64,000 nucleotides of DNA from Chlamydiales bacterium (GCA_029240075.1 JARBTQ010000002.1:75218-139217), one strand, 5' to 3'; shown: positions 11,647 through 64,000, counted from the stretch's first letter. Notes: generated by a model not told the origin, from the letters alone. Made by a program: numbers and translations.

Positions 11647-11730
11647 TGCGGCCAAGATGACTCGAACATCCACCGAGTTTCCTCGACTAGAACCTGAATC
11701 TAGCGCGTCTACCAATTCCGCCATGGCCGC
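11647..11730 (-). tRNA. tRNA-Leu (anticodon CAG), type II with long variable arm
   Basis: The reverse complement folds as a cloverleaf: acceptor GCGGCCA/TGGCCGC, anticodon stem CTAGA/TCTAG with loop TTCAGGT, long variable arm, T-arm GGATG-TTCGAGT-CATCT. CCA is not encoded. Confidence 0.95.
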
Positions 11731-12031
11731 AAAGCTAGGCAATGAATAAAATCTAACAATAAGTTACGCAAATTCCTGATTTTTAATCAATAGATCTGTT
11801 GAAGAACCTAGTTGCAAGCATCTATTTGTCTATCCAATAAAGTGTTTATGCATAAAATTTTATCTACTCCTTCATAATAAGTTATAATGATGAAAAACTG
11901 TTTTAGCTTGTTTAGAACCAAATTTATTTAGAGTAGTAAGAGGTCTAGGTGTAACTATCAGAAACTTTAAAAGCTCTGGTAATTTAAGGTGGAAATAAGA
12001 AGTGTAAAAGGAAAATAGTGCGTTGTAGCAC

Positions 12032-12841: not shown

Positions 12842-12842
12842 A

Positions 12843-13325
12843 TTAAACTTCAGCTAGTTCTACGTAAGAAGCGGTCCAATAGTTTTTTAGAATTTCAAGT
12901 TGTTCAATTGTCAAGGGGTAGCGATGAAGTTCTTGTTCTTTAATCCAATTAGCATCTCTGTAGTGCTGGGAATTAAGTTTTATGGAATCAGCTGCATCTA
13001 CTATTACAGGGATAACTACTAGCTGGGTTTGTGGACCCTTTGCAGATGTGTGAATGCTAGAATAGATGCAAGGATCTATTCGGGATACTTCTAAGCCAGT
13101 CATTGACTTGACAATATAAGGAAATAATTCTTCACAAGTATCGCGAGCTTCTAAATGAATGGAAAGAAGGTCGTAAGGGCAAGCTAAATTAGGAGTATAA
13201 GCTGGTTGCATGAGGAGGATTTGTTCTTGATAACAAATACAAAGCTTTGCTAAAAAGCGTGAGATCCCTTTTTCCCAACCATTCTTAAATAGCTTTTGTA
13301 TATTAAGTGTTGTGTGTTGTTCCAT
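12843..13325 (-). CDS. Hypothetical protein, 160 aa (weak Nudix-like resemblance only)
   Basis: ORF packed tightly between the MVD-like and SDR genes (1-nt and 22-nt gaps). The segment EARDTCEELFPYIVKSMTGLEV is only loosely Nudix-box-like. Confidence 0.55.
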   Translation of the reverse strand: MEQHTTLNIQKLFKNGWEKGISRFLAKLCICYQEQILLMQPAYTPNLACPYDLLSIHLEARDTCEELFPYIVKSMTGLEVSRIDPCIYSSIHTSAKGPQTQLVVIPVIVDAADSIKLNSQHYRDANWIKEQELHRYPLTIEQLEILKNYWTASYVELAEV

Positions 13326-13347
13326 CTGGTCCTCTCCTTTATCTAAG

Positions 13348-14385
13348 TTAATGGGAGTTAAAAGGTATGAAAATTTCTGCCTTTGGAAATGTTTTTTTGA
13401 CCTTTTCTAAATCTTTTTCTAAAAATAAAATTTTTAAATCGGCGCTCTGATCCATAGTGAAATAAAGAGGGATACCAGAATTTCGTATTCGCCATATTTC
13501 ATGGATGCATTCAATCGTCTGGGGTGAGCAGTACAAGAGAGTTGGGATTGATGATAGAGCGAGTGCTTGTAAAGTTAGACCATTATTCTCACTTACTTGT
13601 CCTACTCTCTCAAACTGTTTAAAATTGAGAGCTTCTTTAAACTCTATTACATCTCTTATAGCTGCGGCTTCCCACGCAGTGTACAGTGAGGAGGTTTCTT
13701 GTATTAGTTGCGCTTCTTTTATATATTGCTGTGAACGCTTTGCTTTTTCTGTGCTTAAGGGTAAATGCCCTACTAAAAGTTCATCCCACCAGATTGATAA
13801 GGGACTAGCGTAGCTATCCCAACCATTAGGGGAAACTCCTTTATCCCATTCTACAAATCCTGAGTAAAGAGAAATACAAGCCTCTCCTGCCAAAATTCGG
13901 GTTAAAATACAAAGTTGTGTTCTATCAAGCTTCCAGTCGAAAAAATCGCGCAAGGCCAATAAAAGCGCTGCAATTTTAGATCCTAGGGGATTAGAAGTTA
14001 GCCTTTCTAAATCTGAAATCGTATCGTTAATTATAATAGTAAAGTAAAAGTCGGGATAAGGACGTACCAGATCTAAAATCTGTTTGAAAAATTCAATTTC
14101 AGGAGCTGCTGAAATTCCTAACTTTTCGTTGAGTCTAATACTATCATGGTTATAGCCTAATTGGACGCAAACATTGGAGCCAAAAGGAAGAGATAAGCTG
14201 ATGCTAGGGGCTATTGGTAAATTAAGTTCTTTGTTTCTTAGCCCCCAAGCCTTACAAAGATGAAGATGTGCTGGTGCAAAAGCATGAGCTTCCTCTAGGC
14301 GAGGATGAAATCGCTGTGGAAGTAATTTTTGAATCATTTGCTGTTTGATCAATTTCATCCCATTTTTCATATCATTTATTACCAA
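13348..14385 (-). CDS. Diphosphomevalonate-decarboxylase-like GHMP-family protein with degenerate motifs
   Basis: APAHLHLCKAWGLRNKELNLPIAPSISLSL matches the MVD N-terminal pattern (NIA.IKYWGKRD..LNLP.NSS.S.TL). TRILAGEACISLYSGFVEW matches ARKGSGSACRSLFGGYVAW. YFTMDQSADLKILF matches AYTFDAGPNAV. The glycine/serine-rich ATP motif is poorly conserved. Confidence 0.6.
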   Translation of the reverse strand: MVINDMKNGMKLIKQQMIQKLLPQRFHPRLEEAHAFAPAHLHLCKAWGLRNKELNLPIAPSISLSLPFGSNVCVQLGYNHDSIRLNEKLGISAAPEIEFFKQILDLVRPYPDFYFTIIINDTISDLERLTSNPLGSKIAALLLALRDFFDWKLDRTQLCILTRILAGEACISLYSGFVEWDKGVSPNGWDSYASPLSIWWDELLVGHLPLSTEKAKRSQQYIKEAQLIQETSSLYTAWEAAAIRDVIEFKEALNFKQFERVGQVSENNGLTLQALALSSIPTLLYCSPQTIECIHEIWRIRNSGIPLYFTMDQSADLKILFLEKDLEKVKKTFPKAEIFIPFNSH

Positions 14386-15490
14386 GAATGAGTAAATCTT
14401 TACTTCGACGAGTTAAAATTTCGTAACTTTGATCTGTAACTACTATAGTATCTTCTATACGCACTCCTCCAATATCAGGCAAATAAATACCGGGTTCAAT
14501 TGTAATCACCATACCCGAGTGCAATTCTAAGTCTTTGTCTGTAGATAATTGACTGACTTTAGGAGATTCATGGATCTCTAATCCTAAACCGTGACCTAAG
14601 CTATGATTAAAGAAATCTTTATATCCAGCCTCGCCAATCATTTGTCTTGCGGCTTCGTCCAATTGTCCTAGCTTGATTCCTGGTTTGCAAAGATCTAAAG
14701 CTACTTGTTGTGCTTGTTTCACAATAGAATAAATCTCTTTAATTTTAGGATGGGGGTCTCCCCAAAATACAACGCGTGTCATATCAGAATGGTATTGGTT
14801 TAGCACCACACCGATATCAATTAGAACTGTATCTCCCTCCGTTAATTTTTTTTCCCCAGAGCGGTAATGGGGCATGGAGCTATTTTTACCAAATGCAATG
14901 ATTGGTTCAAAAGCTAAACGCTCACCCTGGTGTCTTTTCCAAAAAATTTCTAATTCAGTAGCTAATTCTTTTTCAGAGATTCCAGTTTTTAAATTCTTAC
15001 AGATAAAATCAAACCCTTGGGCTCCTAATTCTGCAGCTTGTTTGAGGTATTCAATTTCTATGCTATCTTTACTAGAACGCAGAAATTCAATGATTCCTTC
15101 AGTTGGAATAAGTACCCAAGTTATTGTATGTTTAGTTTCTGTTCCTATCTCTCCTGTCCTTTTAGTCCATCGTAAATAATCGCTGTAAGTAATACGATTA
15201 CTGTCGATTCCCAAAGATTTGACACGGTCAGACGACTGTTCTGTCAGATATTTTTTGATTTTTTGATCAGATGTTAATTCTACACGAATAGGGGCTTGTT
15301 TAATACATGTCTCAATATAACGGCCATCCACAAAAAGTTGAGCATCGGTTTGTGTAATGATAAGAGTGCCGGCACTTAGATTTAGATTTAAAAAGTAGAA
15401 CAGATTGATTGAGTCCTCAATAACGAAACTATCAAGTTCTCTCTCTTTAAGAATTATTTGTAATCGATTAATACGATTAAGAGAATTCAT
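14372..15490 (-). CDS. pepP: Xaa-Pro aminopeptidase (M24B family)
   Basis: 372 aa. HSLGHGLGLEIHE and GGVRIEDT metal-ligand motifs. Creatinase-like N-terminal domain. Confidence 0.85.
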   Translation of the reverse strand: MNSLNRINRLQIILKERELDSFVIEDSINLFYFLNLNLSAGTLIITQTDAQLFVDGRYIETCIKQAPIRVELTSDQKIKKYLTEQSSDRVKSLGIDSNRITYSDYLRWTKRTGEIGTETKHTITWVLIPTEGIIEFLRSSKDSIEIEYLKQAAELGAQGFDFICKNLKTGISEKELATELEIFWKRHQGERLAFEPIIAFGKNSSMPHYRSGEKKLTEGDTVLIDIGVVLNQYHSDMTRVVFWGDPHPKIKEIYSIVKQAQQVALDLCKPGIKLGQLDEAARQMIGEAGYKDFFNHSLGHGLGLEIHESPKVSQLSTDKDLELHSGMVITIEPGIYLPDIGGVRIEDTIVVTDQSYEILTRRSKDLLILGNK

Positions 15491-15838
15491 GGTAATCCTT
15501 TTTATTGGAGTGAGTTTGTTTTATACAAATAACTTTAAATAGTAGTTGAAGTTATTGTTTTTATTTTAAAAGCAGCGAATTAAGTTTTGTTTTGTTTCAT
15601 GTTTTAATTTTGTTTTTTTTGTTGTATCTTTCATAGCTCAGTTTAAGTAATAATTGAGTTTACCTAGAAGCGATTAAGATACAATAATATTTCATTGATT
15701 TGTTGTTGAGCTCTATTTGCAACAAAATATCTATTATGGACTCTAAGCAAAATTCTAGAAGAATCGATTTCCATTTAAGATTGCCTTTTTTATTTATTGA
15801 TGATATGTTAAATTCAAAAAGTAAAGGAGAAAAAATTA

Positions 15839-17545
15839 ATGCCGCAAAACCATGCTTACAGTTGGGATGACAACAATGTCCTTGATGATGTTGAGTTTGC
15901 ATCTCAAGATGCCGAAATCTTCCGTAACCTTTTAGGTTCTTCAGAAGGGGAAGGGGAAGAGGGCTCACTCTCTCTCGCTGCTTCAGGGCGAGTTTTAAAA
16001 GGGACTATTATTGATGTTTTAAAAGACTTCGCAGTCATTGATGTTGGTCTTAAGTCAGAAGGTCTAGTTTCTGTATCTGAATTCACAGATCCAACAGAGC
16101 TCGTTGTAGGGAATCAGATCGATGTATTCTTAGAAAATGCTGAAGATGCTAATGGTCAAATCGTTCTTTCTAAAGAGAAAGCAGATCGTCAGAAGCAATG
16201 GGAATTCATCATCAACAACTGTGTTGAGGGATCTATTGTTACCGGTAAGGTCCTACGCAAAGTTAAGGGTGGACTCATGGTGGATGTGGGCGTCGAAGCT
16301 TTCCTACCAGGATCTCAAATTGATAACAAACGTATCAAAAATATCGATGAATATCTGGGCGAAACGTTTGAATTTAAAATTATCAAGATCAACATCGATC
16401 GCAAAAATATTGTTCTTTCTCGTAGAGAGTTACTTGAAGCTGAGAGAATATCTAAGAAAACTGAGATGCTCGAAACTATCCAAACTGGAGAAGTTCGCAA
16501 AGGTATCGTAAAAAATATTACAGACTTTGGTGTGTTCTTAGATCTCAACGGTATCGATGGACTTCTGCATATCACTGATATGACATGGAAGCGTATTAAG
16601 CATCCTTCTGAAATGGTAGCTATTGGTCAAGAAATCGAAGTAGTTATTCTTAGTGTGGATAGAGACAAAGGGCGTGTAGCTTTAGGTCTTAAGCAAAAAG
16701 AAGCTAATCCATGGCAACATATTGCTGACAGATATCCTCCAGGAACTCGTGTTAAAGGTAAGATCGTTAATCTTGTACAATACGGTGCTTTCATTGAAAT
16801 TGAACCTGGTATTGAAGGATTGATTCACTCTTCTGAAATGTCTTGGGTTAAGAACGTAACTGATCCTAGCGAGATTGTAGTCAAGGGACAAGAAGTTGAA
16901 GCTATTGTCAAGGAAGTTTTAATTGAAGAGGGTAAAATCTCTTTAAGTATCAAGCAAACAGAAGCTAATCCATGGGATAAAGTGGAATCTCTCTATCCAG
17001 TAGGAAAGAAAGTGGAAGTGGAAGTTCGCAACCTTACAATTTATGGTGCGTTTGTTGAATTAGAGCCTGGAATTGATGGATTGATCCATATTTCAGATCT
17101 AAGCTGGGGTAAGAAAATTTCCCACCCATCAGAAGTTTTAAAGAAAGGCGATAAATTAGAAGCTGTTATATTGAGTATTGATAAGCCAAGCCGTAAGATT
17201 ACTTTGGGAGTTAAGCAACTAACAGAAAATCCATGGGAAAAGATTAAAGAAAAAGTACCTGTCGGATCTTATGTTAAAGGTGTTGTTACAAAGACAACAG
17301 CGTTTGGAGCTTCTGTAGAAATTGGTTATGGTATTGAAGCTGTTATTCAAGTTTCAGAGCTTTCTGATCAGCCATTTGGTAAAGTTGATGATGTGATTAC
17401 TAAGGGTAGTGAAATCCAAGCTAAAGTGATTCGTGTCGACCCAGAGCATAAAAAGATCTATATTTCTATCAAAGAGTATCTGCAAGATCATAATCAGCCT
17501 AGTCGCGATGATATTATTATCTCCTCACAAGGGGGGAATGAGTAA
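15839..17545 (+). CDS. rpsA: 30S ribosomal protein S1
   Basis: 568 aa with six S1 OB-fold repeats (e.g. G.V...T.FG.F..L..GIDGL.H.S). Sits upstream of nusA-infB as in Chlamydia. Confidence 0.95.
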
Positions 17546-40822: not shown

Positions 40823-42109
40823 ATGACTGTTGATATGAATCGTATAGCCAGCATTATCTTGGGTGGTGGGCAAGGAACACGCCTATTCCCTTTAACATAT
40901 AGTAATTGCAAGCCGGCTATCTCTTTTGGTGGGAGATATCGTTTAATAGATGTTCCCGTATCTAATTCGATTAATTCTCAAATTCGTAAAATCTTTATTA
41001 TTACTCAATTTCTCTCTTCTTCTCTACATCGACACTTAATGCATACCTACCATTTTGATCAATACTCCTCAGGGTTTATTGAACTGCTTTCTCCAGAACA
41101 GTGTCCCACAGGTGAGCACTGGTTTCAAGGTACGGCAGATGCGGTGCGTCAAAATGTAAAATATTTTATAGAGACCCCTGTCGATTATTTTCTGATTCTA
41201 TCAGGTGATCAACTTTATAATATTGAATTTGAGAAGATGCTTGACTTTGCACAAAAGACAGATGCAGATTTAGTTATTGCATCTCTACCTGTAAATAAGC
41301 AGGATGCTCAACGTATGGGAATCATGCAAATCGATGAAAATGCGCATGTCATAGATTTCTATGAAAAGCCTAAAAGTGACGAAATTTTAAATCGTTTGCA
41401 TGCTGATAGCAAAGCCTTAGAAAAATGGGGATTTAGCATTTCTCCAGACAAACCTTTCTTAGGTTCTATGGGGATCTATGTCTTCAAAAGAGAGGCTTTA
41501 CTACGTTTGCTTCAAGAAGATCAACGTGAGGATTTTGGAAAACATCTTATTCCTACACAAATCAAAAAAGGAAAGGTAGCATCCTTCCTTTACACCGGAT
41601 ACTGGGAAGATATCGGAACAATTGATGCTTTTTATAAAGCCAATTTAGCTTTAACAGAGCCTAATCCTTTATTTGATTGTTACGATCCAAAAAACAAAAT
41701 TTATACAGAAATTCTAAACTTGCCCGGACCCAAGTTTTCAAACACGAAAGTGTCCCAAGCTATTATATGTGAAGGGTCAATTGTAGAAGCTGATGAGGTA
41801 ACGCACAGTATCTTAGGCCCTCGTACTGTAATCAAGAAAGGCACTATAGTAAGAAATTCATTCTTGATGGGGAATGATTTTTATGAACCGCCTGTAATGC
41901 AAACAGAAAGCCTTCCAGAATTTCTTCACATTGGAGAAAACTGTGAGATTGATAAGTGTATTATTGATCGTAATGTGCATATAGGAAATAACGTTAAATT
42001 GAAAAATCCACAAAATCTAGAGCATTACAACGGGGAAAAGATCTACATTAGGGACGGAATTATCATTGTAACGCGTGGTGCACGTATACCAGATGGATTC
42101 AAACTCTAA
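40823..42109 (+). CDS. glgC: Glucose-1-phosphate adenylyltransferase
   Basis: ILGGGQGTRLFPLT nucleotide-binding motif, FQGTADAV, and a C-terminal left-handed beta-helix region. 428 aa. Confidence 0.9.
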   Translation: MTVDMNRIASIILGGGQGTRLFPLTYSNCKPAISFGGRYRLIDVPVSNSINSQIRKIFIITQFLSSSLHRHLMHTYHFDQYSSGFIELLSPEQCPTGEHWFQGTADAVRQNVKYFIETPVDYFLILSGDQLYNIEFEKMLDFAQKTDADLVIASLPVNKQDAQRMGIMQIDENAHVIDFYEKPKSDEILNRLHADSKALEKWGFSISPDKPFLGSMGIYVFKREALLRLLQEDQREDFGKHLIPTQIKKGKVASFLYTGYWEDIGTIDAFYKANLALTEPNPLFDCYDPKNKIYTEILNLPGPKFSNTKVSQAIICEGSIVEADEVTHSILGPRTVIKKGTIVRNSFLMGNDFYEPPVMQTESLPEFLHIGENCEIDKCIIDRNVHIGNNVKLKNPQNLEHYNGEKIYIRDGIIIVTRGARIPDGFKL

Positions 42110-42134
42110 CTTCAAGCTGTTAGATAGGATGGCT

Positions 42135-42175
42135 AAATAGATCTCTTGCGAAGTAATGTACGAAGAGATCTATTT
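42135..42175. terminator. 15-bp inverted repeat hairpin 25 nt after the glgC stop (no U-tract); carries the AGAGATCTAT repeat core
   Basis: aaatagatctcttgcg / cgaagagatctattt, one bulge, 10-nt loop. Confidence 0.45.
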
Positions 42176-42433
42176 AACAGTAAGATGCAAAAGGGGGCTA
42201 ATACAGCAGCACGCTTTACACGTTGTTTTGGAAGTCGCGATTTCAAGCTCGGAACGCCTGTTTTGCGAACTTCTGCATACTCCCTAAGATGTTGCTTAGC
42301 TACTCTTTCAAGACGTGTTTCCTCTAGTTTAGCCCCTTCAGTAAATGGCCTAGCTGCAAATTCCCCAGTATCCACGGTAAAGCTAGCGATTCCTTTAACT
42401 GTTTCGATAGGTTGCGTAACCAATAGGTCTCTC

Positions 42434-42497
42434 TCGAAACTTGTTTCGAAGAGATTTATCGAGCCACCGACAGTAAAGATTTGAAAGAGGCTCAATC
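42434..42497. repeat. 64-nt dispersed repeat copy inside the orphan module ORF
   Basis: tcgaaacttgtttcgaagagatttatcgagccaccgacagtaaagatttgaaagaggctcaatc. On the minus strand it encodes LSLFQIFTVGGSINLFETSFE. Confidence 0.75.
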
Positions 42498-42700
42498 TAG
42501 TCAGATTATTAGTCGCACCAACGATATTATCATTGTACTTAGCTTGTAGACGAGCAATCTCTCTATTATTTGATTGGACCACGGGATTGGCTTCACTTGG
42601 AACATAAACTTTAGCATTTTCTAACGTTCCGTGTACTTTATTATAAGCCCACTCCCTACCTTGATCAATGATATTTGTCTTTGGTTGTGTCTTGCTATCG

Positions 42701-42855
42701 GGAGCATGGACAAGACCGGGATTGCCCTTAGTCACAGCAATAGAATCTTGCTGATTAGCTACGCTTATAAATGCAGGACCACAATAGGCTTTGTTTTCAT
42801 CAATTACTGCTTGACCGTGTTCAAAATCCTCCTTAGAGACCACATCATCAGGATG
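42701..42855. repeat. 155-bp repeat copy 1 (partner 45370-45524, same orientation)
   Basis: Hand alignment gives 7 mismatches in 155 nt, with sharp loss of similarity on the low-coordinate side. Confidence 0.85.
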
Positions 42856-43093
42856 CAAGCCAACAGCTGTAGGCTTAGATTCTATAGGAGCAGGCTTTTC
42901 TGGGACTTATAAATCACGATGTGGAGGTTTTAGAGACTCCTCAGGCAGATTAGCTTTTTTAATAGGTTGAGGTTCTACAGAGCTAGGCTTGCCTGCAGGA
43001 GGTAGCTCTAGGGCAGCTTTATTCTGTCTTTATAGAGAGTTAAATGTTGCCACTAGAACTGAATTCCAGACTCGCCTTATGAAACTACGTTTA

Positions 43094-43669
43094 TTACTGA
43101 CTCGATGAAGGTGATGGGACGAGATGACGAGCTTCTTCATATGGTTCTTGCAGTATGACTTCTAAATTCCGTATTTCTTCGTTAAAACGTTCATAGGTAA
43201 TGATGCCATCACGTAATGTTGCCATAGCTACATAGTTCCCTCGAATGAATAGCTGATCATTATCTAGTTGGCGGAAGGTCCAGCGTAACTGTAGTCGTTC
43301 TAAACCAAAGGTAGGGGTTGTAATAAGTTCTTTAATTTCGTTAGAATCATTCAGAAGCTTGAGGTACCAGTCTGTACTCTCTACAATCATTTTTCGTGCT
43401 TGAGAAACATCATTAGCTTCTTGCCCTTCATAATACATGCGTAGCCAATAGATTTTGTCACCCCAATGCGCTGTTATCAAAAACGGGGTATAGTGATAAA
43501 CCTTCTCCATCTGCTCAACATGTTCAGCTTGGTATTTTCCAATATAATATTTTTGAGGCGGCCAATACCATTTCTTATGGGGCGGCGGCAAATCTGCATA
43601 GCATTGTAAACTGTTTATAAATAGTATCGCTATTAGTGATATAGAATAGATTTTTAGTTGATATATCAT
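43094..43669 (-). CDS. Small exported protein, paralogue B (candidate immunity/partner protein)
   Basis: 191 aa. Signal-like N-terminus MIYQLKIYSISLIAILFINSLQCYA-D. Shares ...AR..(I/Y)......(Y)L.LLN...EI/KI...L..(L/V)E/Q.R..F...EPYEEAR architecture with the preceding gene. Its ATG overlaps the upstream stop (ATGA). Confidence 0.7.
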   Translation of the reverse strand: MIYQLKIYSISLIAILFINSLQCYADLPPPHKKWYWPPQKYYIGKYQAEHVEQMEKVYHYTPFLITAHWGDKIYWLRMYYEGQEANDVSQARKMIVESTDWYLKLLNDSNEIKELITTPTFGLERLQLRWTFRQLDNDQLFIRGNYVAMATLRDGIITYERFNEEIRNLEVILQEPYEEARHLVPSPSSSQ

Positions 43670-44259
43670 GATTTATCCCCCAAAGCTAACTTCAAATGGT
43701 TAAATTCTTTAGTACGTGCCTCTTCATAGGTTTCTTTATGTATATTTTTTAGAGGGTTATGTATACCGTAGCCTTTCTTAGTATCGTAATAAATATATTT
43801 ATTGTTATTAAAGATACAACAGATATGCGTTCCATCACTAACTAGTCGTTGATTGGCATCATAAAACTCTAAACGTATTTCAACATTAGCCAGAGTAAGT
43901 GGGTAATTTGCTAGATAGGGCCTAATCTTTTCATTATTGTTAAATAGTTCTAAAAAGGTATTTAGATAGGTCAAATAGATGCCACGCGCAGTCTCCACAT
44001 CACACAATGAAGACATTAGCAATCTAAATTCCACTTCTTTTATATCATGCATCATAGATCCGCCGCCGCCGCCGTAGCTTACCGGAAAAAAATTGTTGAT
44101 TTTACTCACAAATTCCCGCTCTAATTGAGCGGAAAGGTTAATATACTTGTAAGCTTTTCTTTTTGGCAAAATATCTTCAGGAGTAATATATCTTTCGCGA
44201 TCCATACACGAAAAACAAAGCAAAGGGCAGATTAGGAACATTCTCAATATATTTCTCAC
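43666..44259 (-). CDS. Small exported protein, paralogue A (candidate immunity/partner protein, possible lipoprotein)
   Basis: 197 aa. MRNILRMFLICPLLCFSC signal with an atypical lipobox-like Cys. Internal GGGGGS. Ends ...KETYEEAR.... Its GTG start overlaps the stop of the 1277-aa gene (GTGA). Confidence 0.7.
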   Translation of the reverse strand: MRNILRMFLICPLLCFSCMDRERYITPEDILPKRKAYKYINLSAQLEREFVSKINNFFPVSYGGGGGSMMHDIKEVEFRLLMSSLCDVETARGIYLTYLNTFLELFNNNEKIRPYLANYPLTLANVEIRLEFYDANQRLVSDGTHICCIFNNNKYIYYDTKKGYGIHNPLKNIHKETYEEARTKEFNHLKLALGDKS

Positions 44260-47200
44260 GAATTATCCTCTCTTATAAATGCTTCACATTTAACCTGTAA
44301 AGGTTCGAAGTAAACCTTAGATAACATACTGTGAGCAAACCCTTCTTGTGAAATCGAACATTCCATGCCATCCTCAATGTTTTGAGCATGCATTTCCATT
44401 AATTCATCCGTTTTATTATCTATCCACTGTTTTTTGTGGTTATTGAACAAAGGAGTTGAGTAAATAATATCATCTTGATGCTCAAAATAGTATAAGTTTT
44501 CCGCATACTGTCTTAAAGTTTTTTGAACTTGCTCAGATGTTTTTAAACCATATGTTTTTTCTAAGATGTCAATTCGGTTATTATTTAATAGTTTTGGAAT
44601 AGGATCTAGATTACATATGATATTGGACACCTTTCCTAAATTCATTTTAGGAATAATGTCAGCGCCTCCCATACTAATTACAGAGATTCTATCTTGTTCT
44701 TTATCCGGCAGAGTTGCGACAGCATTTTTAAAAATTAGCGATCCAAGACTATGCGTTATAAAAATTGCCTTCTCGTTTTCGTTCAAAATGTCTTTCATCC
44801 ATGCTCTACAAAATTGAATGTGAGAGTTATTATTATCTTGCAACATTGTGAGAAGCTGAGGCACTTGCAAATTAAAATAACAACCTTGCACTTCATGTTT
44901 CCCACCAAAAAGAGAGTGAACAAATTGATGCTTTTGCTTTGCTTCGTCAGGACTATTAAACATTCCTGATATGACACAAATAGAGGTCGTTTCCTTATTT
45001 CTGATAAATTTTTCCCCTTCAATCTTATACAGGCCTTCATCTTTAAACTTATAGCCTAGTCTATTTTCAAAGTAAGCAGTAGTAGGAAATTTGGTATTCA
45101 TCTCTTTATTATCAATTTTTTCGATATCCTCAAAGCCATAGCCTGTAGTTATGTGGCTTTGTCTTTCTAAAGCTTCCAAGAAAGGTTTTACTAATTTTGA
45201 GGTATAGGAGTCTAGTTGAGTCATGTTTGTTAAGCCGATTATCTCAGCCTTACTGTTAGCATCTTGATCTGCTATCTCATGAACGTGTTTCTTCTCTCCC
45301 AATAACTCCTTTTTAGTTTCCAAAGGAGGATTTCCCTCTGCGTCATTTTGAGGTCTACTAACGGGGTCAGGAGCATGGACAAGACCTGGGTTGCCCTTAG
45401 TCACAGCAATAGAATCTTGCTGATTAGCTACGCTTTTAAATGCAGGACCACAGTAGGCTTTGTTTTCATCAATTACTGCTTGACCATGTTCAAAATCCTC
45501 CTTAGAGACCACATCATCGGGATGAGCTACAGCTTTGTTTGAACCGGCAAGACCGGAGAGCGTGCCTGAGTCATGCCCATAACTCGGATTTGCGCTTGAC
45601 CCTTGATGAGCTGCAGGATAAGGTAACCCAGCCTCCATTCTAGCGACATAGGCTGGATCATCCGTCTTGTTTTGGTACACTCGAGGTGTAGGTTTGGCTA
45701 CAGGCTGAGTTTCAGATACAACAGTAGGATCATAGCTTGTGGTTTTAGTCGTATTGCTCGTACTCGCTGGTTGTAGATTAATTGGTTCTAAATTATCAAG
45801 TGGAGGTATAGGATTACTTGAATATTTACCTGGACCAGAATTGCCTGTGGAATTTGTTTTTGCATTAGAATTAGTAGCTAGTTTTTGTAATGCCTTAATA
45901 TTTTCTATCTTTGCATCTATTCGAGCCATTGATTCTTCAAAAGAAATTTCATCAGGATCTACCAATAGCCCTGCAGAAGATTTGATTTTATATATGCTAG
46001 CATCGATCTCAGTCATCTTACTAGAAAAAGAATCTTTTTTTAGCAGCTGTTGTGCTTGTGCTTGTATTCTATCAGCTTGAAGGCACATATATTCAAATTC
46101 AAGCTTATTTGACTCAAAATCAGCTACATCAAAATCTGCTTTCATTCGTGCCATAGTCGCTTCTTGATTAAGCTCTTCCGCTAAATTTATAAGCCCTTGC
46201 TCATACTCTTGCTTTTTTAAATCCATATAGAATTCAAATTTTTCTCGATCATTATCTTCTAAATTTTGAATCCTATCATCTAAACGATTAAGTGCATGTT
46301 CCGCTTGATTTAATTCTTGTCTAGCATTGGATTCCAACTCTGTCAGTATAAGACCTGTGGTCGCAATTTTAAGCTCTGATAATTGTGTGTGAAGATGCTC
46401 TGTTTGCGCATCGCTGGCAATTTGATCTGCTTGCTTATCTAATCGCTCTAATTCTTCTGTTGTTTTTTGCGCATTTTCTTGTTGTTGCTGATTTTGGATC
46501 AACACTTCAGTATGCTGACTGTCTGCATAATCGACTGAGTTGATATGATTTAAAAGAGTGACTCTACGCTGCTCCCAACCCACTTTTAATGCTCTATCAA
46601 CTTCACTTAGAGTCTGAGTGGACTTATAGTATTGTCCTGTTACTTCAGCTATCTTTTTACTATTATTTTCGATCTGTTTAGCAAGTGTTTCCACTTTTTT
46701 TAGCTCACTTTCACTATGAGAGGACCGATACTTATCAGCAGAAGTGTTCAGCTCGTGTGCTAATTGTTGGGTTTCTGTGCGAAGCTTTTGCATTTCTGAT
46801 GATTGTGAAAGACCTTGGTTTGATAAAGCGTGATAGCGCGATAGATTTTGCTCATTTTGTTGGTGTTGCTGTCTCAATTCAGAACTAAGACTGGATTGCT
46901 GTCTTTGTAGTTCTTGATAGCTCTGCTGTATTTTTTCGGCAGTATGATTCAATTGGTGCTGGATCTTCTGAGCTTGCTCTGGAGCCTCTTTTGCCTCACA
47001 AACAACGCTTTGCATCTTATGCGTTAAGTCTTGAAATTTACGTTCATGCCCTGTGCGCTCTTGTTCGTTATTTTCTAATTTTTTGCACTGCTGTATTGAT
47101 TGTTCTTTGTTTTCCTGTATGCGTTTTTCAATATTTCCTATACGGTTCTTTTCATTATTTATTTGAGTTTGGTGTATGTTACGATCTTGTTGCGCACTAG

Positions 47201-48089
47201 CAGTATAGGCAGAATCCCATTGCTGCGGGTTAAAATTTTGAGTCTGTGTTATTTTTAGTTTAGCTAAATAACGTATCGCATCTAGTTTCAGATCCTGTTG
47301 AGCATTTTTTTTTGCACATTCTAGAATTTGTGAATGCATTTGCTGTATGTAAGCTGGTGAGCCAAATACTGGTTTTTGTCCAAATCCTCCTGCTGTCTGT
47401 GTAAAAAGAGGTTGAGGTTGTGCAAAGATTGGATTGCGAGGTGGCGGCGGGCTGAGCGAACGAGGATTCCGTGATTGGGCATTATGCAATGAGTTGGAAA
47501 CATGGCCTGCTTGAGTTTGAATGCTACTTGCTGTTCCTTTGCCATGTCGTACCCGTAGTTCTGTGCTTTCCTTAGTCGCTGCTTGATAAGTCTGTTTTTG
47601 ACTGATGCTATGATATTTTGCTTCCGATTGACTTTTTACATGATCAGCTTTTGTCTTAAGTTTTGCAGACACAGGATTAGCTGGACCGCTAGGACTATTA
47701 CCAGAAGGTCCTTTAGGGTCTGGTGAATTTGCAAAAAACTCTACTTTCCTTCTAGCAAAAGCGTTAGCTTGAGCATAGCCTTGGTTATGGGAAGAATTGG
47801 CAAAAGCTCCAGGAACACCTGTTAGATCTGAGGCAATAATTCCTATTTCTTGCAGCTTTTTAGTGGCAAAGTCTTGATAAGCTTTGATCTTTTCAAGATT
47901 TTCCTGCTGCTTAATCTCTTCTTGTGAAGGCCCACTGTAACTTCTTTGGGGGGCCTGATTACGACTGCGGCGAGCATAAGGCCAGGCAGGCCCGCCTCTA
48001 TTACCCGAAGATCCTCCATATAACCAAGCGTATCCGATTTCAAAACTATAACCTTTTCGACTATAACTTCCTTTACTTCGCCAACCCAT
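44256..48089 (-). CDS. Large multidomain protein: disordered N-terminus, Q-rich coiled coil, P/S/T linker, C-terminal lipase-like alpha/beta-hydrolase domain (putative secreted effector/toxin)
   Basis: 1277 aa with no signal peptide. Residues about 300-720 are heptad-rich (QQ.., LE..). The C-terminal roughly 280 aa carry a nucleophile elbow AIFITHSLGSL (GxSxG-like), an Asp motif ICNLDPIPKL (resembles the D.VP of class-3 lipases) and EGFAHSM (candidate His). Confidence 0.75.
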   Translation of the reverse strand: MGWRSKGSYSRKGYSFEIGYAWLYGGSSGNRGGPAWPYARRSRNQAPQRSYSGPSQEEIKQQENLEKIKAYQDFATKKLQEIGIIASDLTGVPGAFANSSHNQGYAQANAFARRKVEFFANSPDPKGPSGNSPSGPANPVSAKLKTKADHVKSQSEAKYHSISQKQTYQAATKESTELRVRHGKGTASSIQTQAGHVSNSLHNAQSRNPRSLSPPPPRNPIFAQPQPLFTQTAGGFGQKPVFGSPAYIQQMHSQILECAKKNAQQDLKLDAIRYLAKLKITQTQNFNPQQWDSAYTASAQQDRNIHQTQINNEKNRIGNIEKRIQENKEQSIQQCKKLENNEQERTGHERKFQDLTHKMQSVVCEAKEAPEQAQKIQHQLNHTAEKIQQSYQELQRQQSSLSSELRQQHQQNEQNLSRYHALSNQGLSQSSEMQKLRTETQQLAHELNTSADKYRSSHSESELKKVETLAKQIENNSKKIAEVTGQYYKSTQTLSEVDRALKVGWEQRRVTLLNHINSVDYADSQHTEVLIQNQQQQENAQKTTEELERLDKQADQIASDAQTEHLHTQLSELKIATTGLILTELESNARQELNQAEHALNRLDDRIQNLEDNDREKFEFYMDLKKQEYEQGLINLAEELNQEATMARMKADFDVADFESNKLEFEYMCLQADRIQAQAQQLLKKDSFSSKMTEIDASIYKIKSSAGLLVDPDEISFEESMARIDAKIENIKALQKLATNSNAKTNSTGNSGPGKYSSNPIPPLDNLEPINLQPASTSNTTKTTSYDPTVVSETQPVAKPTPRVYQNKTDDPAYVARMEAGLPYPAAHQGSSANPSYGHDSGTLSGLAGSNKAVAHPDDVVSKEDFEHGQAVIDENKAYCGPAFKSVANQQDSIAVTKGNPGLVHAPDPVSRPQNDAEGNPPLETKKELLGEKKHVHEIADQDANSKAEIIGLTNMTQLDSYTSKLVKPFLEALERQSHITTGYGFEDIEKIDNKEMNTKFPTTAYFENRLGYKFKDEGLYKIEGEKFIRNKETTSICVISGMFNSPDEAKQKHQFVHSLFGGKHEVQGCYFNLQVPQLLTMLQDNNNSHIQFCRAWMKDILNENEKAIFITHSLGSLIFKNAVATLPDKEQDRISVISMGGADIIPKMNLGKVSNIICNLDPIPKLLNNNRIDILEKTYGLKTSEQVQKTLRQYAENLYYFEHQDDIIYSTPLFNNHKKQWIDNKTDELMEMHAQNIEDGMECSISQEGFAHSMLSKVYFEPLQVKCEAFIREDNS
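45370..45524. repeat. 155-bp repeat copy 2, inside the 1277-aa gene (partner 42701-42855)
   Basis: Same alignment as copy 1. Encodes HPDDVV...GLVHAPD just upstream of the lipase-like C-terminal region. Confidence 0.85.
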
Positions 48090-48312: not shown

Positions 48313-49302
48313 TTAGCGCTCATCTAAGCGAGGAATAATATTGAAATTAGGGATCATCTTTGTTCCCAAGCGTGGTTGCGAAGGTATAGCAGGTTCTATG
48401 GTTTGAGTTGTTCGAGCTCCTCTCATATAGCTTGCTTGTAATTCTAAAAACTTTTGCGTTAATAATTGTCTCTCTGCACGTTCAGCAATGAGCTCATTTT
48501 TTAGCAACTCTAATATTTCTGAAGTCTGATTTGATCCTGAAGGTTGCCATTGAGTTACAGTATTTGTAGAAGATCTTTGCAAAGCTTCTTTATCTTTTTC
48601 TAACTCGCTAATCTTATTTAAAGCTGTATCTAATCGGGATGATAAATTTGTTTTATCTGTATAGAAGTCTCCCCTTTGCCTTTCTACGTCACGCAAAGTT
48701 TCCGTTAAAGCTGAGACTTTTTGTTTACTTTCATTTAGTAAAGATTCATTTTCTTGGAACTTTTTTTCAAGTTTTGAAACAATTTCTTTTTGTTCTTTAA
48801 GAGCTTCTTCTAGAGACTTTAGATCCAGGTCCTTTTTAATGTTTTGCTCATCTAAAGATTTCTTAAGAGCTGACCACTCCTCTTTATCCCTATGATGACT
48901 TTCCCTCTCAGTATTGAGCTGTGCTTGAAGCCTGCTATTGTCTTCTGCCCGATAGTACCGTTCGTCATTTAAAGAGCGTTCTAATCGTTCCTCAGCAATC
49001 TTAGAATGGCGTAAAGATTCGACAGATTCATCCAAATAATAAAGATGTGTGGCTAGATGTTTACAATCTTCTCCATCTAAGACATAGTCAAGTTGTGCCC
49101 ATATAGTATTTTTGCTTGCTCGCGATTCGATAGCTGCCTTTAGCTTTATGCTTGCATTTTCTCCTCTACTTTTATGGAGATCATATTCAGGAAAAGGGAT
49201 TGGTTGATGACAAACAGGGTTTGGCTCTGGTTCTTTTTCCTCATTAGGGGGGGTAATCATTTCCTCATATAATTCTCTACGTTTTGATCTAGATGTAAAC
49301 AT
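48313..49302 (-). CDS. Coiled-coil protein (329 aa), hypothetical
   Basis: Central roughly 180 aa of charged heptad repeats (SLDEQNIKKDLDLKSLEEALKEQKEIVSKLEKKFQENESLL...). No signal peptide. Confidence 0.65.
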   Translation of the reverse strand: MFTSRSKRRELYEEMITPPNEEKEPEPNPVCHQPIPFPEYDLHKSRGENASIKLKAAIESRASKNTIWAQLDYVLDGEDCKHLATHLYYLDESVESLRHSKIAEERLERSLNDERYYRAEDNSRLQAQLNTERESHHRDKEEWSALKKSLDEQNIKKDLDLKSLEEALKEQKEIVSKLEKKFQENESLLNESKQKVSALTETLRDVERQRGDFYTDKTNLSSRLDTALNKISELEKDKEALQRSSTNTVTQWQPSGSNQTSEILELLKNELIAERAERQLLTQKFLELQASYMRGARTTQTIEPAIPSQPRLGTKMIPNFNIIPRLDER

Positions 49303-49367: not shown

Positions 49368-50615
49368 TTAGGTTATTAAAAAATCATCAGAAAGAGCTGC
49401 TAATGCAGATAGCTGTTCAATGATTAGCGATAAGGGATCTATAAGATCTAGCTCAATTTTTTGAATTAATTCATTCGAATTCAACGAATCTACTTTCTCA
49501 GTCAAAATTCCTAGATGCTGTAATAAGGCTTTTACCTGAGAAATGAGCTCATCAAAACTTGCATATCGTTTTTGTGTTATTGTAACGCAATGCTCTATCT
49601 CTTTTTGATAATCGGAAATTTTTTTATTCAATGCATCCTTAGCTTGGAGTTGCTGTTGTACATTTTGCTGAAAAAAGTGCAGTTTATTTTGTTGCTGCTT
49701 AGCTAAGATTTGCTGATGTTGCCTTGTTAAGGCTTGTTCCTGCATCAAGCTTTCTAGATTTTCAATAGTTTGCAAAGTCGTAAGATATAGATTCCTAAAA
49801 ACTTCTATTGCTTGTTTTATTGCATGTAATCGCATTTCAGCAGTATCAAAACAGTTTAGAACCTCCGGATTAAACAAAGAACGAGTAGAATCGTACCTTG
49901 CGCTCATATTTGTCACTTTGATTTGGATGTCGGATAATAGTGGTACGAGGGCACCATCTATTGTTTCAGATGAGCGATAATTTCTTGTATGCACCGTATT
50001 CCCTGTTTGTAGCGATTGTGGCAAAGATTCAGATAGCTTAATAAGAGCATCCTTCAATTGGCCACCATGCTCACTCAACAGTAGAGGTAAGGAGGTCATT
50101 TTTTCTGTAATTGTTTTAAAAGACTCATGACTATTATTCAAACGCTCCCGTAACTCATTACAAGATTGTAAATGATGGAGACTACTGAGTTCCTGTTTTA
50201 TGTCTTTAAAGAGATTTAAAGTTGTCTTGAGATTATTCAAGATAAAAAGAGAATAAGAGCGTAGAGAAGGAAGGGTTTCATTCGACTCTTTCAGCACAAA
50301 AGTAAGTTGTTCCGTGTTGGCTGTTAAATTATGAAATTCCATTTTAAAACTTTGCATCTTTTGCTCTTGTGCACTCCATAGACGAGCCTCAAAATTAAAC
50401 CTTGTATCTTGCTCCTGATAAAGACGCAGTTGATCTTGTAAATGTTGTAAAGCTTGTTTTACTGCTAAGCCAATCTGGTATGCTTTACAATAAGTACGTT
50501 GTTCTAATACCAAATCTTCTTTTGAACTAGCATGATCTACTATAGCTGCTTCTAAAGTTAATTGTGGACTACTTAAAGGCTTATTTTGGAAAATAGTTTG
50601 TATAGAAGGGTTCAT
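49368..50615 (-). CDS. All-helical hypothetical protein (415 aa)
   Basis: Long ORF with Q/L-rich helical sequence. Same strand as, and 65 nt upstream of, the 329-aa coiled-coil gene. Confidence 0.65.
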   Translation of the reverse strand: MNPSIQTIFQNKPLSSPQLTLEAAIVDHASSKEDLVLEQRTYCKAYQIGLAVKQALQHLQDQLRLYQEQDTRFNFEARLWSAQEQKMQSFKMEFHNLTANTEQLTFVLKESNETLPSLRSYSLFILNNLKTTLNLFKDIKQELSSLHHLQSCNELRERLNNSHESFKTITEKMTSLPLLLSEHGGQLKDALIKLSESLPQSLQTGNTVHTRNYRSSETIDGALVPLLSDIQIKVTNMSARYDSTRSLFNPEVLNCFDTAEMRLHAIKQAIEVFRNLYLTTLQTIENLESLMQEQALTRQHQQILAKQQQNKLHFFQQNVQQQLQAKDALNKKISDYQKEIEHCVTITQKRYASFDELISQVKALLQHLGILTEKVDSLNSNELIQKIELDLIDPLSLIIEQLSALAALSDDFLIT

Positions 50616-61113: not shown

Positions 61114-61215
61114 AATCTTTCTTATTTAAATCAAAAATTCCAAAGTTTTTTTAGATGCGATTATGCTAAAAGATTCTTTTAGTGTTTCTCATTTACAAGT
61201 TCATAATAATCTTTT

Positions 61216-61279
61216 TCGAAACTCGTTTCGCAGAGATCTATCGAGTCACCAAACGTAAAGATTCGAAAGAGACTCAATC
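61216..61279. repeat. 64-nt dispersed repeat copy downstream of tRNA-Ala (partners 42434-42497 and partial 22768-22795)
   Basis: tcgaaactcgtttcgcagagatctatcgagtcaccaaacgtaaagattcgaaagagactcaatc aligns with 42434-42497 at 55/64 identical positions by hand. Confidence 0.75.
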
Positions 61280-61496: not shown

Positions 61497-64000
61497 TTAT
61501 ACAAAGTTTGCATCCTTGATAGCTTTATCATATACACAAAAATATTGTGATATAGGGGACAATTTACCATTTATACCACTAGTCCAGCTGGATTGAGCTG
61601 CATTTTTCATAACATTTCTTAGCCTATTATTTTTGTCACTAGAACTCATGGTTTTCCAGTTTTTGAATGTATCATAAATAGCATATTTTAACCGTTCTGA
61701 GTTTCCTTGCGAGTCATTAGGTTTTCTCTCAAATAGTGTTCCATTTTCAGCGGTAACTGTATCAGCTAATCCACCTAGTTTGCTTGCAATCACTTGGGAA
61801 CCAAAAAGCCATCCTTCGTATTGTACTAATCCACAAGGCTCAAATCTTGAAGGAACGACCATAAAGTCAGATGCCGCACGGATTAATGCCCCTATTTGCC
61901 CTTGAATTTTATATGCCTCTCCATTCTTTTCATCATTGATAACACACGTATCATTCCTCATATTTCCCTGAGCACATTTTTCTTGTAATGAACGCACAGC
62001 CTTACTGCCGTCTTGATCATCAGGGTTATGTGGTCCTACGCTAATAAATTGTCCCCCCTGCTTTAATACTTCTTCTGCAGCAGCGGGTAGAAGGTCTAGG
62101 CCTTTTTGCCCTGTATAACGGCCAATAAAATAGACTAAAGGCTTGTTTGGATCTATCTTGATATGGAATCCATACTGGTTACCATACTTTGTAAACCATT
62201 TTTTTAACTGCTCTTTAATAATGCGCTTTTTACCCATTATATCTGGATCATCAGCGGAGAATGTGAGATCAATTGGTTTTCCTGTTTCTGGGTCTTTCCA
62301 TTCTCTTAATTGTTGGTTTGTTGCGGGATTCCATGCTTTAGGATTACTACCATTAGTAATTCCTGTCAGTTTGTTCTGTTTTGCTATATCGCGGATATCA
62401 TTATCTATATGAAAACCATAGTCGGGAGACATCGATTCTTTAGCATAAGATTTTGATACTGTAGTTATATGATCAGCATTTTGTAAACCAATTCTGAACA
62501 GGTTATCTCCCTTCATTCCAAATCGAGAATCCTTTTCTTCGCCATTACTATATATCCCTTGTGCGCCATAATCATTGTTATGGTAAGTGTATACAACTGG
62601 TAATGTTTTGTTTTTTTGTTTAATTAATTGTGCAGCTCCAGCAGCATGCCAGTCATGTAGATGTACTAAAGGAATGTTTCCCTTACTCTTTATACGGTCA
62701 GACATTTTTAGACTTAAATCTGCTGCATGACTAGAGAAGCAAGCAAACCTTGTTTTTATACTAGCAGTGCCTGAACCATAAACAGAGGGTTTCTGTTCTG
62801 AAAGTCTAAACCGTCCTCTTTTGTCATCTATAAGATAAAGGTTAACTCCATCTAGTTTAGTCTTGAAAACATTGTAGTCTGGTGTTGAAAACTTAGGAAC
62901 AGGTTTCAATTGAAGATTCTTTTTCTGAAGGATGCTGTCTAAACTGCTGTATTTTGGTAAGATAACACGAGCTTTCCCTTTTTGGCGTTCTTGTTGCGAG
63001 ATCGCCTCTGCCATACCTGTTATAGCTTCAGCCAATCCTCCTTCAGAACAAAGCCCTTTGTATTCAACGCCTACTAAGATAGGTCTTACCTTACTAACAT
63101 TGTCTGGAAGTGTTTGACTTAGTCTTTCAGCCTCGCAGTTTATAAAGGTTGTCTTTAACTTGCCTAAAAATGTCTCTTTATTTTCACCTAAAGCTGAATG
63201 AACCTTATCTAATAAATAATCAATTGCTGATTTTTGTCCATTAGGGCCTTTTTGGTGTAAAAGTGCTGGGTTCTCTCTAAGAGCTTTTTCTCCGTCAAAT
63301 TTTTTTCCTGTATTTTCGTAAACATAATAACCCAAATATTTTTGGTCATGCTCATCTAGACTTGAGACTATTTGGTTGATACTTGACTTTAAATCTTCTA
63401 TCCTAGGATGTTTTGCTAAAATTGATAGTTTACCTAATAGAAAACGCACATACACTTTTTCATCATCGGACAGAGGTAAGTGTTCTATGCTACTATACAC
63501 TTGTCTTATACTACCGGCTAAATTATGTAAGTTACTATCAAGGATGATGCCTAAAGAGTGCAATTCCTTAGCTGTCTCATGTGCTAGAGATTGTATCCCG
63601 TTGGATTTTAATGCCTCCTGGTATAATTTGCCGAAGTCAGAAAGAACAGATATTTTAATTAACTTTTCTTTAAGGGGTTTTTGCCATTGAAAAAACTTAA
63701 TCATTTCTGGTAGCATGGCTGAATTGCTGTTGTTATTAGCATGAAATGTAGTATTAAAAATTTCTTTTAAGTCATTATTCAAAAGAACTGTCCTTCCAAA
63801 ACAATAGTCTGTTTCCATTTCTTTAAGGCGACTTCCACTGTTTCTAAATGCACGATAAATAGACTCCTCTATTAGATATCCAGTAGATTTCTTCAAATCC
63901 TTATAAGAGTTCCTAATTTCCTGTGCGGACTTACCAGCTTTTAAATCATCCCAAAAACGTTCCAGTTGCTGTAATTTTGTAGGAGCGTTACCAGAAGGCG
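61497..64000 (-). CDS. Divergent GT5 glycogen-synthase-like protein with a long N-terminal extension; the 5' end lies beyond the window
   Basis: The frame stays open from 63896 to nt 64000 (…PSGNAPTKLQQLERFWDDLKAGKSAQEIRNSYKDLKK…). GT5 core begins near VGVEYKGLCSEGGLAEAI. Also HLHDWHAAGA, GRYTGQKGLD and SRFEPCGLVQYEGWLFGSQVIASKLGGLADTV. Confidence 0.8.
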   Translation of the reverse strand, partial: PSGNAPTKLQQLERFWDDLKAGKSAQEIRNSYKDLKKSTGYLIEESIYRAFRNSGSRLKEMETDYCFGRTVLLNNDLKEIFNTTFHANNNSNSAMLPEMIKFFQWQKPLKEKLIKISVLSDFGKLYQEALKSNGIQSLAHETAKELHSLGIILDSNLHNLAGSIRQVYSSIEHLPLSDDEKVYVRFLLGKLSILAKHPRIEDLKSSINQIVSSLDEHDQKYLGYYVYENTGKKFDGEKALRENPALLHQKGPNGQKSAIDYLLDKVHSALGENKETFLGKLKTTFINCEAERLSQTLPDNVSKVRPILVGVEYKGLCSEGGLAEAITGMAEAISQQERQKGKARVILPKYSSLDSILQKKNLQLKPVPKFSTPDYNVFKTKLDGVNLYLIDDKRGRFRLSEQKPSVYGSGTASIKTRFACFSSHAADLSLKMSDRIKSKGNIPLVHLHDWHAAGAAQLIKQKNKTLPVVYTYHNNDYGAQGIYSNGEEKDSRFGMKGDNLFRIGLQNADHITTVSKSYAKESMSPDYGFHIDNDIRDIAKQNKLTGITNGSNPKAWNPATNQQLREWKDPETGKPIDLTFSADDPDIMGKKRIIKEQLKKWFTKYGNQYGFHIKIDPNKPLVYFIGRYTGQKGLDLLPAAAEEVLKQGGQFISVGPHNPDDQDGSKAVRSLQEKCAQGNMRNDTCVINDEKNGEAYKIQGQIGALIRAASDFMVVPSRFEPCGLVQYEGWLFGSQVIASKLGGLADTVTAENGTLFERKPNDSQGNSERLKYAIYDTFKNWKTMSSSDKNNRLRNVMKNAAQSSWTSGINGKLSPISQYFCVYDKAIKDANFV

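Follow-up and report, generated by a model that had tools for sequence, protein, structure and literature searches.

How a short, sharp-edged sequence came to be shared by a large gene and by a gene fragment lying behind it, and whether the two copies still serve to exchange the ends of these genes, is the question raised by a locus of a Chlamydiales bacterium (GCA_029240075.1 JARBTQ010000002.1:75218-139217). The window analyzed here, the whole stretch of 64,000 nucleotides, derives from a Chlamydiales metagenome-assembled genome (MAG; K0S74) of JGI sample 3300042923 and lies within a 139.8-kb contig. On its minus strand it carries a gene for a 1,277-aa candidate toxin, K0S74_214 (44256..48089), two small genes, and an orphan fragment annotated as K0S74_211 (42858..42133). 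A preliminary description had proposed that a direct repeat linking the large gene to the fragment is a handle for homologous recombination, used for cassette exchange or for recurrent gene conversion. With fair confidence, the fragment and the repeat can be read as the scar of a cassette displacement, still a possible substrate for recombination, in a locus of the polymorphic-toxin type. Since the fragment looks like a decaying relic, the repeat is probably a by-product of cassette shuffling rather than a working switch.

In this scheme, the main gene would couple a delivery scaffold, via a 53-aa block encoded by the repeat, to an alpha/beta-hydrolase toxin, and the two small proteins encoded immediately behind it, which are paralogous and have signal-like N-termini, would act as its immunity proteins. 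The repeat would be the common 5' junction module of two C-terminal cassettes, the orphan being what remained after the displacement of one cassette by another, or after recombination between them, as is known from rhs and cdi loci. A crossover across the block would load the orphan C-terminus onto the scaffold. We infer both the history of displacement and the capacity to recombine.

The repeat was recovered as a single two-copy family (42698-42855 and 45367-45524) of 158 nt with 96% identity, no gaps, and a spacing of 2,669 nt, so that the 155-bp direct repeat with seven mismatches originally described is real and grows by 3 nt. The seven mismatches leave perfect runs of 2, 17, 2, 45, 16, 32, 32, and 5 nt, and because of the runs of 45, 32, and 32 nt the block would be usable as a substrate for RecA-type recombination. 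A chance origin was ruled out, as a 32-mer of the block has just two occurrences in the 64-kb window and is absent from all of 100 dinucleotide shuffles. Both edges are abrupt. When the copies were aligned by MAFFT together with some 300 nt of flanking sequence, identity was limited to the block, and local alignments of flanks of 30, 60, 150, and 300 nt on each side scored no higher than shuffled sequence. The abrupt low-coordinate edge already reported was therefore sharp, and the weak resemblance over about 10 nt reported at the high-coordinate edge was not significant against shuffled flanks: upstream of the repeat edge a residual match of 8/9 nt, AGCTGT(T/A)G, lies beside a 3-nt indel, and downstream a possible S-x-x-Q follows a 6-nt indel, neither being significant. 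The gradual decay of similarity into the flanks that would mark an old duplication was not seen, and such an origin was ruled out. Translation placed both copies, as had been described, in the same orientation and in frame with a coding sequence: they lie on the minus strand in equal codon phase and read HPDDVVSKEDFEHGQ...LVHAPD. Repeat search, alignment, and translation agreed on copy 1 (45367..45524), which encodes aa 856-908 of the main protein (HPDDVVSKEDFEHGQAVIDENKAYCGPAFKSVANQQDSIAVTKGNPGLVHAPD) within the 1,277-aa open reading frame (ORF) 48089..44256, and on copy 2 (42698..42855), which heads the orphan fragment at the start of ORF 42858..42133.

The ORF call for K0S74_214 is identical to the protein annotated in the MAG. 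Its layout comprises a conserved N-terminus, a long coiled coil and a P/S/T-rich linker, the 53-aa junction block, and the C-terminal alpha/beta-hydrolase, where the conserved N-terminus and about 750 aa of coiled coil and linker make up the scaffold. No Pfam, NCBIfam, or PADLOC family was matched by the 1,277-aa protein. A word-indexed protein search with the whole protein returned only itself, as coiled-coil words saturated the candidate list. The N-terminal ~95 aa (47805..48089, minus strand) are common to a paralogue in the same MAG, K0S74_1341 (BLASTP 32% identity, E 6e-5; pairwise alignment), and form a candidate export or scaffold signal. A profile built from the two N-termini gave no matches and did not recover the query proteins themselves either. 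A phage-defence system was also considered and was rejected for want of a PADLOC match. The toxin gene is immediately preceded on its strand by two genes for coiled-coil proteins of 329 and 415 aa (48313-49302 and 49368-50615), which gave only weak SMC-like matches and are not conserved beside the paralogue.

The C-terminal domain (44259..45068, minus strand) appeared to be an esterase- or lipase-like alpha/beta-hydrolase. An AF2 model of aa 909-1277 was confident over the last 270 residues, with a predicted local distance difference test (pLDDT) score of about 80-95, and the top Foldseek matches of this model were esterases, lipases, and other alpha/beta-hydrolases (probability 0.95-1.00). 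The family alignment keeps the columns of an HSxG serine, an aspartate, and a histidine, which predict a triad of Ser1114 (44748-44750), Asp1162 (44604-44606), and His1253 (44331-44333), all on the minus strand. In Pfam, just a weak, sub-threshold match to DUF676 (E 0.03) was found. The predicted structure and the conserved columns thus support a serine alpha/beta-hydrolase; of the "lipase domain" named in the preliminary description, the fold holds and the lipase label itself is plausible.

Ten proteins were identified when aa 831-1277 were searched exhaustively with HMMER against 1.84 billion cluster representatives. Among these, the paralogue K0S74_1341 (P0004) repeats the layout, with a homologous N-terminus, a long stretch of coiled coil, a diverged version of the block's second half, and the hydrolase at 29% identity; the C-terminal two thirds of block copy 1 align with it (NICGPAF..ALTKG). 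Another match, P0009, is a 1,778-aa Rhs/YD-shell protein with the hydrolase domain after its core, and several others are short standalone hydrolase-domain proteins. The hydrolase was accompanied by the same type of neighbor. The first small gene of the window (197 aa; 43666..44259, minus strand), the start of which overlaps the toxin stop codon, encodes a protein that is 35% identical to the product of the gene after P0004 (E 3e-30) and related to that of the gene after P0009 (E 8e-11). Hence, a homologous small protein is encoded next after the hydrolase on all three scaffolds (K0S74_214, K0S74_1341, and P0009), and such joint transfer of an enzymatic C-terminal domain and the small gene behind it to unrelated scaffolds is the hallmark of toxin-immunity pairs. 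The second small gene (191 aa; 43094..43669, minus strand) encodes a distant paralogue of the first (27% over 97 aa, E 4e-4) with a signal-like N-terminus. The 197-aa protein has a hydrophobic N-terminus ending in Cys that looks lipoprotein-like by eye; all four small proteins start with a Cys-containing hydrophobic segment, and a clear lipobox could be read by eye in two of the four. When Pfam, NCBIfam, and PDB were searched with the sequences of toxin, small proteins, and orphan, nothing usable was returned. On these sequence grounds the 197- and 191-aa proteins are likely the immunity proteins of the hydrolase, which would itself be toxic and would be countered by its partners.

The hydrolase domain was also found by itself in Logan assemblies, where a standalone 308-aa homologue (P0007; L006 3544-4470 and L007 4001-4927) is encoded without a small partner gene among the housekeeping genes PTS EIIA, dut, accD, and sod. 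The domain therefore exists outside toxin-immunity pairs too, and this protein is possibly a host-directed effector.

Behind the two small genes, the orphan fragment follows the order linker, block, and unrelated C-terminus, and appears truncated at its 5' end. A four-way DNA alignment showed that the linker, VPEKPAPIESKPTAVGL (42856..42907, minus strand), is absent from the main gene and common to two further cassettes, designated L001 and L004. The first belongs to a 15.9-kb contig of the same sample (Ga0456365_0005539, 1-15882), which contains a giant Fil_haemagg_2 gene with an embedded OTU protease domain. This gene is followed by a DUF2247 gene and then by three gene fragments, the first two each followed by a small ORF, and DUF2247 is listed as the immunity protein Imm38 (PMC3482391). 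The fragments match the giant gene at 95-99% over stretches of 372-838 nt and diverge thereafter, an arrangement that, judged by its gene order and identities, is a textbook CdiA-type orphan array on a chlamydia-associated contig; the contig ends before any transporter gene is visible. Fragment 2 quits the constant sequence at "...ETAKVP" and opens its variable part with the same linker and block, which match positions 42701-42908 of the window with 88% nt identity over 208 nt (blastn). The second cassette (L004) lies at the end of a 48-kb contig, Ga0456365_0001182, which also carries K0S74_1341 and is binned in the same MAG. In it, the linker is followed by no more than the first eight block codons (HPDDVVSK) and then by a different C-terminus, and it matches positions 42832-42914 of the window with 91.6% identity (blastn).

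Across the four-way alignment, abrupt junctions were observed at four places: before the linker, before HPDD, after VVSK, and after HAP. Junctions at differing points indicate a mosaic family, a pattern typical of cassette shuffling. In the library of 1.84 billion cluster representatives, the high-identity block is limited to these proteins. The preliminary description had held that occurrence of the block in many unrelated paralogues would speak against a recombination handle; other carriers do exist, but they are toxin cassettes, which supports shuffling rather than refuting it.

The repeated toxin sequences also raise the concern of an assembly artefact, namely a chimeric joining of similar toxin cassettes during metagenome assembly. 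Related cassettes do occur on several contigs, and toxin arrays break assemblies at such places: the L004 contig (positions 1-842) ends 296 nt upstream of the cassette fragment P0012/K0S74_1847, which suggests that repeated toxin sequence fragments this MAG and that further arrays are missing from it. In the window, however, the two copies differ at seven sites and are separated by 2.7 kb within a contig of 139.8 kb whose flanking genes are ordinary, and the order of toxin and then immunity gene is mirrored at the paralogous locus, so that a chimera is highly improbable. A 765-aa gene on the L004 contig (1545-3842, minus strand) contains internal tandem repeats of ~216 nt with 66-76% identity (blastn self-matches 1759-2973), and near K0S74_1341 a 140-aa ORF overlaps a DUF2247/Imm38 gene (L004 5774-6746; L002 18985-19957). 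About 1.3 kb at this latter site is 93% identical to the L001 array, and on that similarity the site is a second remnant of an orphan array, lying within a few kb of the gene for the paralogous hydrolase toxin.

The reading frame of the orphan indicated a longer past. The annotated ORF comprises 241 codons from a TTG start (also called 236-241 aa), the possible TTG and GTG starts having been adopted by the NCBI and JGI annotations, while the coding frame itself runs upstream across a TAA at 42908-42910. Beyond this codon, an in-frame, proline-rich coding remnant of about 40 codons (42911..43030, minus strand) was identified by translation, and codon usage in the orphan frame was 0.44 and 0.46 on either side of the TAA, compared with a gene mean of 0.31 (SD 0.11). 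As the TAA aligns with sense codons in the related cassettes (GAA in L004 and AAA in L001), it represents a nonsense substitution in a once-longer reading frame. Downstream of the block, an orphan-specific C-terminal sequence of about 66 codons (42498..42697, minus strand) is unrelated to the hydrolase and has coding-like codon usage (0.29). It is followed by a 77-nt palindromic element inside the ORF (42421..42497; codon score -0.17, fold z-score -3.0), all other copies of which are intergenic, and by a distal part of about 94 codons and uncertain status (42133..42420, minus strand), with a codon score of 0.24 in the ORF frame. The embedded repeat of an intergenic type suggests decay of the fragment. 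A word-indexed protein search with the orphan recovered itself and a 26-aa match to protein P0003, and an AF2 prediction of the orphan ORF including the block was uninformative (pLDDT 37).

These observations bear on whether the orphan is instead a small gene in its own right, in which K0S74_211 is expressed as a protein of 236-241 aa, the block is its own N-terminal domain, and the similarity to the main gene reflects domain sharing or gene conversion between two functional genes. The ORF is indeed called by both NCBI and JGI, is intact, and has coding-like codon usage, and the ratio of dN to dS in the block, given below, is low. Against this, the frame and its coding-type usage extend upstream of any start and across a stop codon that is sense in relatives, and the linker upstream of the start is common to internal parts of longer toxin cassettes. 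A promoter and terminator scan from 43094 to 42858 found no promoter-like site above the shuffle background, and no homologue was found beyond the block. An independent gene is accordingly quite unlikely, and the displaced cassette remains the preferred reading.

The divergence of the copies was examined through the block, as nothing else is homologous between the two ORFs of the window, using the L001 copy for comparison. Between the two window copies, the synonymous divergence (dS) was 0.20 and the non-synonymous divergence (dN) was 0.008, with six synonymous and one non-synonymous differences and a dN/dS of about 0.04. Either window copy differed from L001 by a dS of 0.41-0.46 and a dN of 0.08-0.09. 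When polarised with L001, the orphan lineage had three synonymous changes and one replacement (K to I), and the main-gene lineage had two synonymous changes. These counts, though small, point to protein-level selection on the block in both lineages for most of their separation. A dS of 0.20 between the copies implies no recent homogenisation and argues against frequent gene conversion, so that the recurrent, ongoing conversion offered in the preliminary description as an alternative to cassette exchange loses ground. Within the block, 11 of the ~20 differences between the window and L001 are packed in 19 nt (KSVANQQ vs KNISSIQ; block positions 87-105, corresponding to 45420-45438, 42751-42769, and L001 10900-10918), with near-identical sequence around them. 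This cluster represents either a short hypervariable stretch or a micro-mosaic inside the block.

Whether the repeat is still in use was considered separately. The orphan might be an active reserve cassette with a C-terminus directed at the eukaryotic host, which would make an immunity gene unnecessary, the block being kept as a handle and cells switching appreciably often by deletion. The geometry for this is in place and agrees with what had been predicted: as computed, a crossover between the direct, in-phase copies would delete 2,669 bp, comprising the hydrolase domain and both small genes, and would leave an in-frame fusion of 1,095 aa, and it would sidestep the upstream TAA. The open orphan ORF with its coding-like usage and the mostly synonymous substitutions of the block are also as expected of a reserve cassette. 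Such switching has been documented for Rhs and CDI systems (PMC3967940, PMC3150448), and toxins of intracellular bacteria often have no immunity genes (PMC3482391). On the other side, an element with otherwise intergenic copies lies inside the ORF, the C-terminus has no relatives among the 1.84 billion cluster representatives, the copies have not been homogenised recently, and the repeat measures just 158 nt at 96%, whereas the shared segments of the L001 array span 372-838 nt at 95-99%. Furthermore, no recombinant was found in the collections scanned. Scans with the block profile were empty among GTDB genomes, JGI metagenomes, and viral contigs, as were scans with the hydrolase profile and a scan of metagenomes with the exact block DNA, the source sample evidently lying outside these collections. 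An active switch is therefore unlikely. The idea of a recombination handle for cassette exchange thus stands in its geometry, in the mobile hydrolase-partner module, and in the linker and block found at other cassette junctions, and is weakened as to active use, as the fragment, with its nonsense codon and embedded repeat, is relic-like.

Several observations weigh against the reading of a displaced cassette in turn. Neither displacement nor recombination was observed, and no recombinant or alternative arrangement was present in the collections scanned. The 1,277-aa scaffold has no recognised secretion or trafficking domain in Pfam, NCBIfam, or PADLOC, and no alternative C-terminus was found on this scaffold elsewhere, the paralogue K0S74_1341 bearing the same type of hydrolase. 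The orphan C-terminus has no relatives beyond the identical ORF of the MAG in protein searches, the 1.84 billion representatives, the fetched loci, Pfam, and PDB. Nor does an immunity gene follow it: the ORF ends at 42133, the convergent gene glgC ends at 42109, and no other minus-strand ORF lies there. With neither an immunity gene nor relatives of its C-terminus, it cannot be demonstrated that the orphan is, or ever was, a toxin. In addition, the ORF stays open over 241 codons and keeps a coding-like usage before and after the palindromic element, and the 3:1 pattern of substitutions in the orphan lineage fits past or present protein-level selection rather than a long-dead relic. Finally, the L001 contig is unbinned in the MAG, and its assignment to the same genome rests on the shared sample and on 93% identity over 1.3 kb with the L004 contig.

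Comparison with known systems placed the locus among loci with orphan toxin ends. In contact-dependent growth inhibition (CDI) loci, orphan cdiA-CT/cdiI modules have been described (Poole et al. 2011, PMC3150448), and in Yersinia pestis Microtus 91001 a deletion of 3,557 bp joins an orphan to the main gene (PMC3150448). Like these orphans, the window fragment follows the toxin-immunity genes on their strand, its homology is confined to a segment just before the variable C-terminus with an abrupt drop in identity, and a deletion between the repeats would load it onto the main gene. It may also lack clear start signals of its own, although TTG and GTG starts are possible. A true haemagglutinin-type array is also present in the same sample (L001). 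Unlike CDI loci, the main gene of the window has no haemagglutinin repeats, two-partner secretion (TPS) domain, or VENN motif in Pfam, and the orphan has no immunity gene and a C-terminus without relatives. In L001, where Fil_haemagg_2 was present and no PT-VENN match was found, the shared block opens the variable cassette rather than forming part of the constant region.

For the Rhs proteins, Jackson et al. in 2009 reportedly proposed a model of C-terminal displacement. Similarly to Rhs loci, the window has an older C-terminus behind the immunity genes of the current one and retains a short repeated junction segment, and the same pairing of hydrolase and immunity protein is seen with a genuine Rhs/YD protein (P0009, L005). 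Recombination between main gene and orphan can express the orphan in Rhs systems, a feature not observed at this locus. In evolved Salmonella lineages, for example, an orphan rhs toxin was re-attached by recombination (Koskiniemi et al. 2014, PMC3967940). The window gene differs in that it lacks an RHS_repeat or YD-shell in Pfam and a DPxGL-type junction, whereas P0009 has the YD shell.

The polymorphic toxins (Zhang et al. 2012, PMC3482391) resemble the locus in their variable enzymatic C-terminus, adjacent immunity gene, and standalone cassettes. As in that class, the same hydrolase ends unrelated scaffolds (P0004 and P0009) as well as standalone proteins, and Tox-ABhydrolase-1 to -3 are classes of alpha/beta-hydrolase toxins (PMC3482391). 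In contrast to that class, the scaffold and junction block of the window match no trafficking or pre-toxin domain in Pfam. Toxins of intracellular bacteria were found to be mostly without immunity genes and were inferred not to fight conspecifics (Zhang et al., PMC3482391), whereas the window toxin has two genes of the immunity type.

Two further comparisons concern parts of the locus. A serine alpha/beta-hydrolase with a partner bearing a putative export or lipoprotein signal resembles the Tle/Tli pairs, the type VI lipase effectors with periplasmic immunity proteins that Russell et al. reportedly described in 2013. The window hydrolase differs from Tle in having no match to DUF2235 or another Tle family model and in its nucleophile motif, which is [TACS]HSxG and not GxSxG. 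Type VI genes were not identified either, but no scan of the remaining ORFs for VgrG, Hcp, or PAAR was made. Willett et al. are said to have described, in 2015, modular N-terminal sub-domains of CdiA-CT regions common to different toxins; like these, the window block is a short, high-identity module that opens the variable region of unrelated toxin ends with sharp junctions. It differs in being only 53 aa long, and the sole structure prediction covering it was of low confidence. Taken by its architecture, the locus works like the orphan cdiA-CT and rhs-CT cassettes and is not itself a member of the CDI or Rhs systems.

The element inside the orphan ORF belongs to a palindromic family of ~75 nt with the core ATAGRTCTCT..CGAAAC..GTTTCG..AGAGATYTAT then ..GTAAAGATTYGAAAGAG.., which is intergenic in this organism except for the one copy in the orphan. 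Other copies were found at 61210-61279 (84% to 42421-42497) and on another contig (L002 8478-8525 and 17675-17713), all between genes, and the family resembles repetitive extragenic palindromic (REP) or miniature inverted-repeat transposable elements (MITE). A strong hairpin at 42134..42176 (stem of 16 bp, -21 kcal/mol, z-score -7.2), where the orphan ORF and glgC converge, represents the hairpin part only of this family and is likely a transcription stop. The glycogen metabolism gene glgC (40823-42109, plus strand; Pfam) converges on the toxin locus. Farther along, a 799-aa ORF (61497-63896, minus strand) looks like a glycogen/starch synthase by eye only.

A recombination handle is established biology and implies no new principle, and earlier catalogues of polymorphic toxins already cover chlamydiae and further amoeba symbionts (PMC3482391, PMC6520448). 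The novelty is of limited extent: an uncatalogued carrier, an equally uncatalogued junction block, and a hydrolase-immunity family that matched no curated family in Pfam or NCBIfam. To these may be added one junction module that, from the alignments, is common to two carrier types in one sample. It is conceivable, though improbable, that linker and block form a selectively maintained adaptor moving cassettes between a secreted haemagglutinin-type filament and an undescribed coiled-coil carrier within a single chlamydial genome, and that the hydrolase with two exported immunity proteins is an antibacterial weapon. If true, this would mean active inter-bacterial warfare with a switchable arsenal in an obligate intracellular lineage, aimed at targets sharing the host cell. 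The locus provides a worked example of the orphan-cassette architecture in an environmental chlamydia. With two genes of the immunity type and a CdiA-like orphan array elsewhere in the sample, it offers a modest counter-example to the pattern reported for intracellular bacteria (Zhang et al., PMC3482391), and it is relevant to the ways in which amoeba symbionts might keep out co-infecting bacteria (compare PMC6520448).

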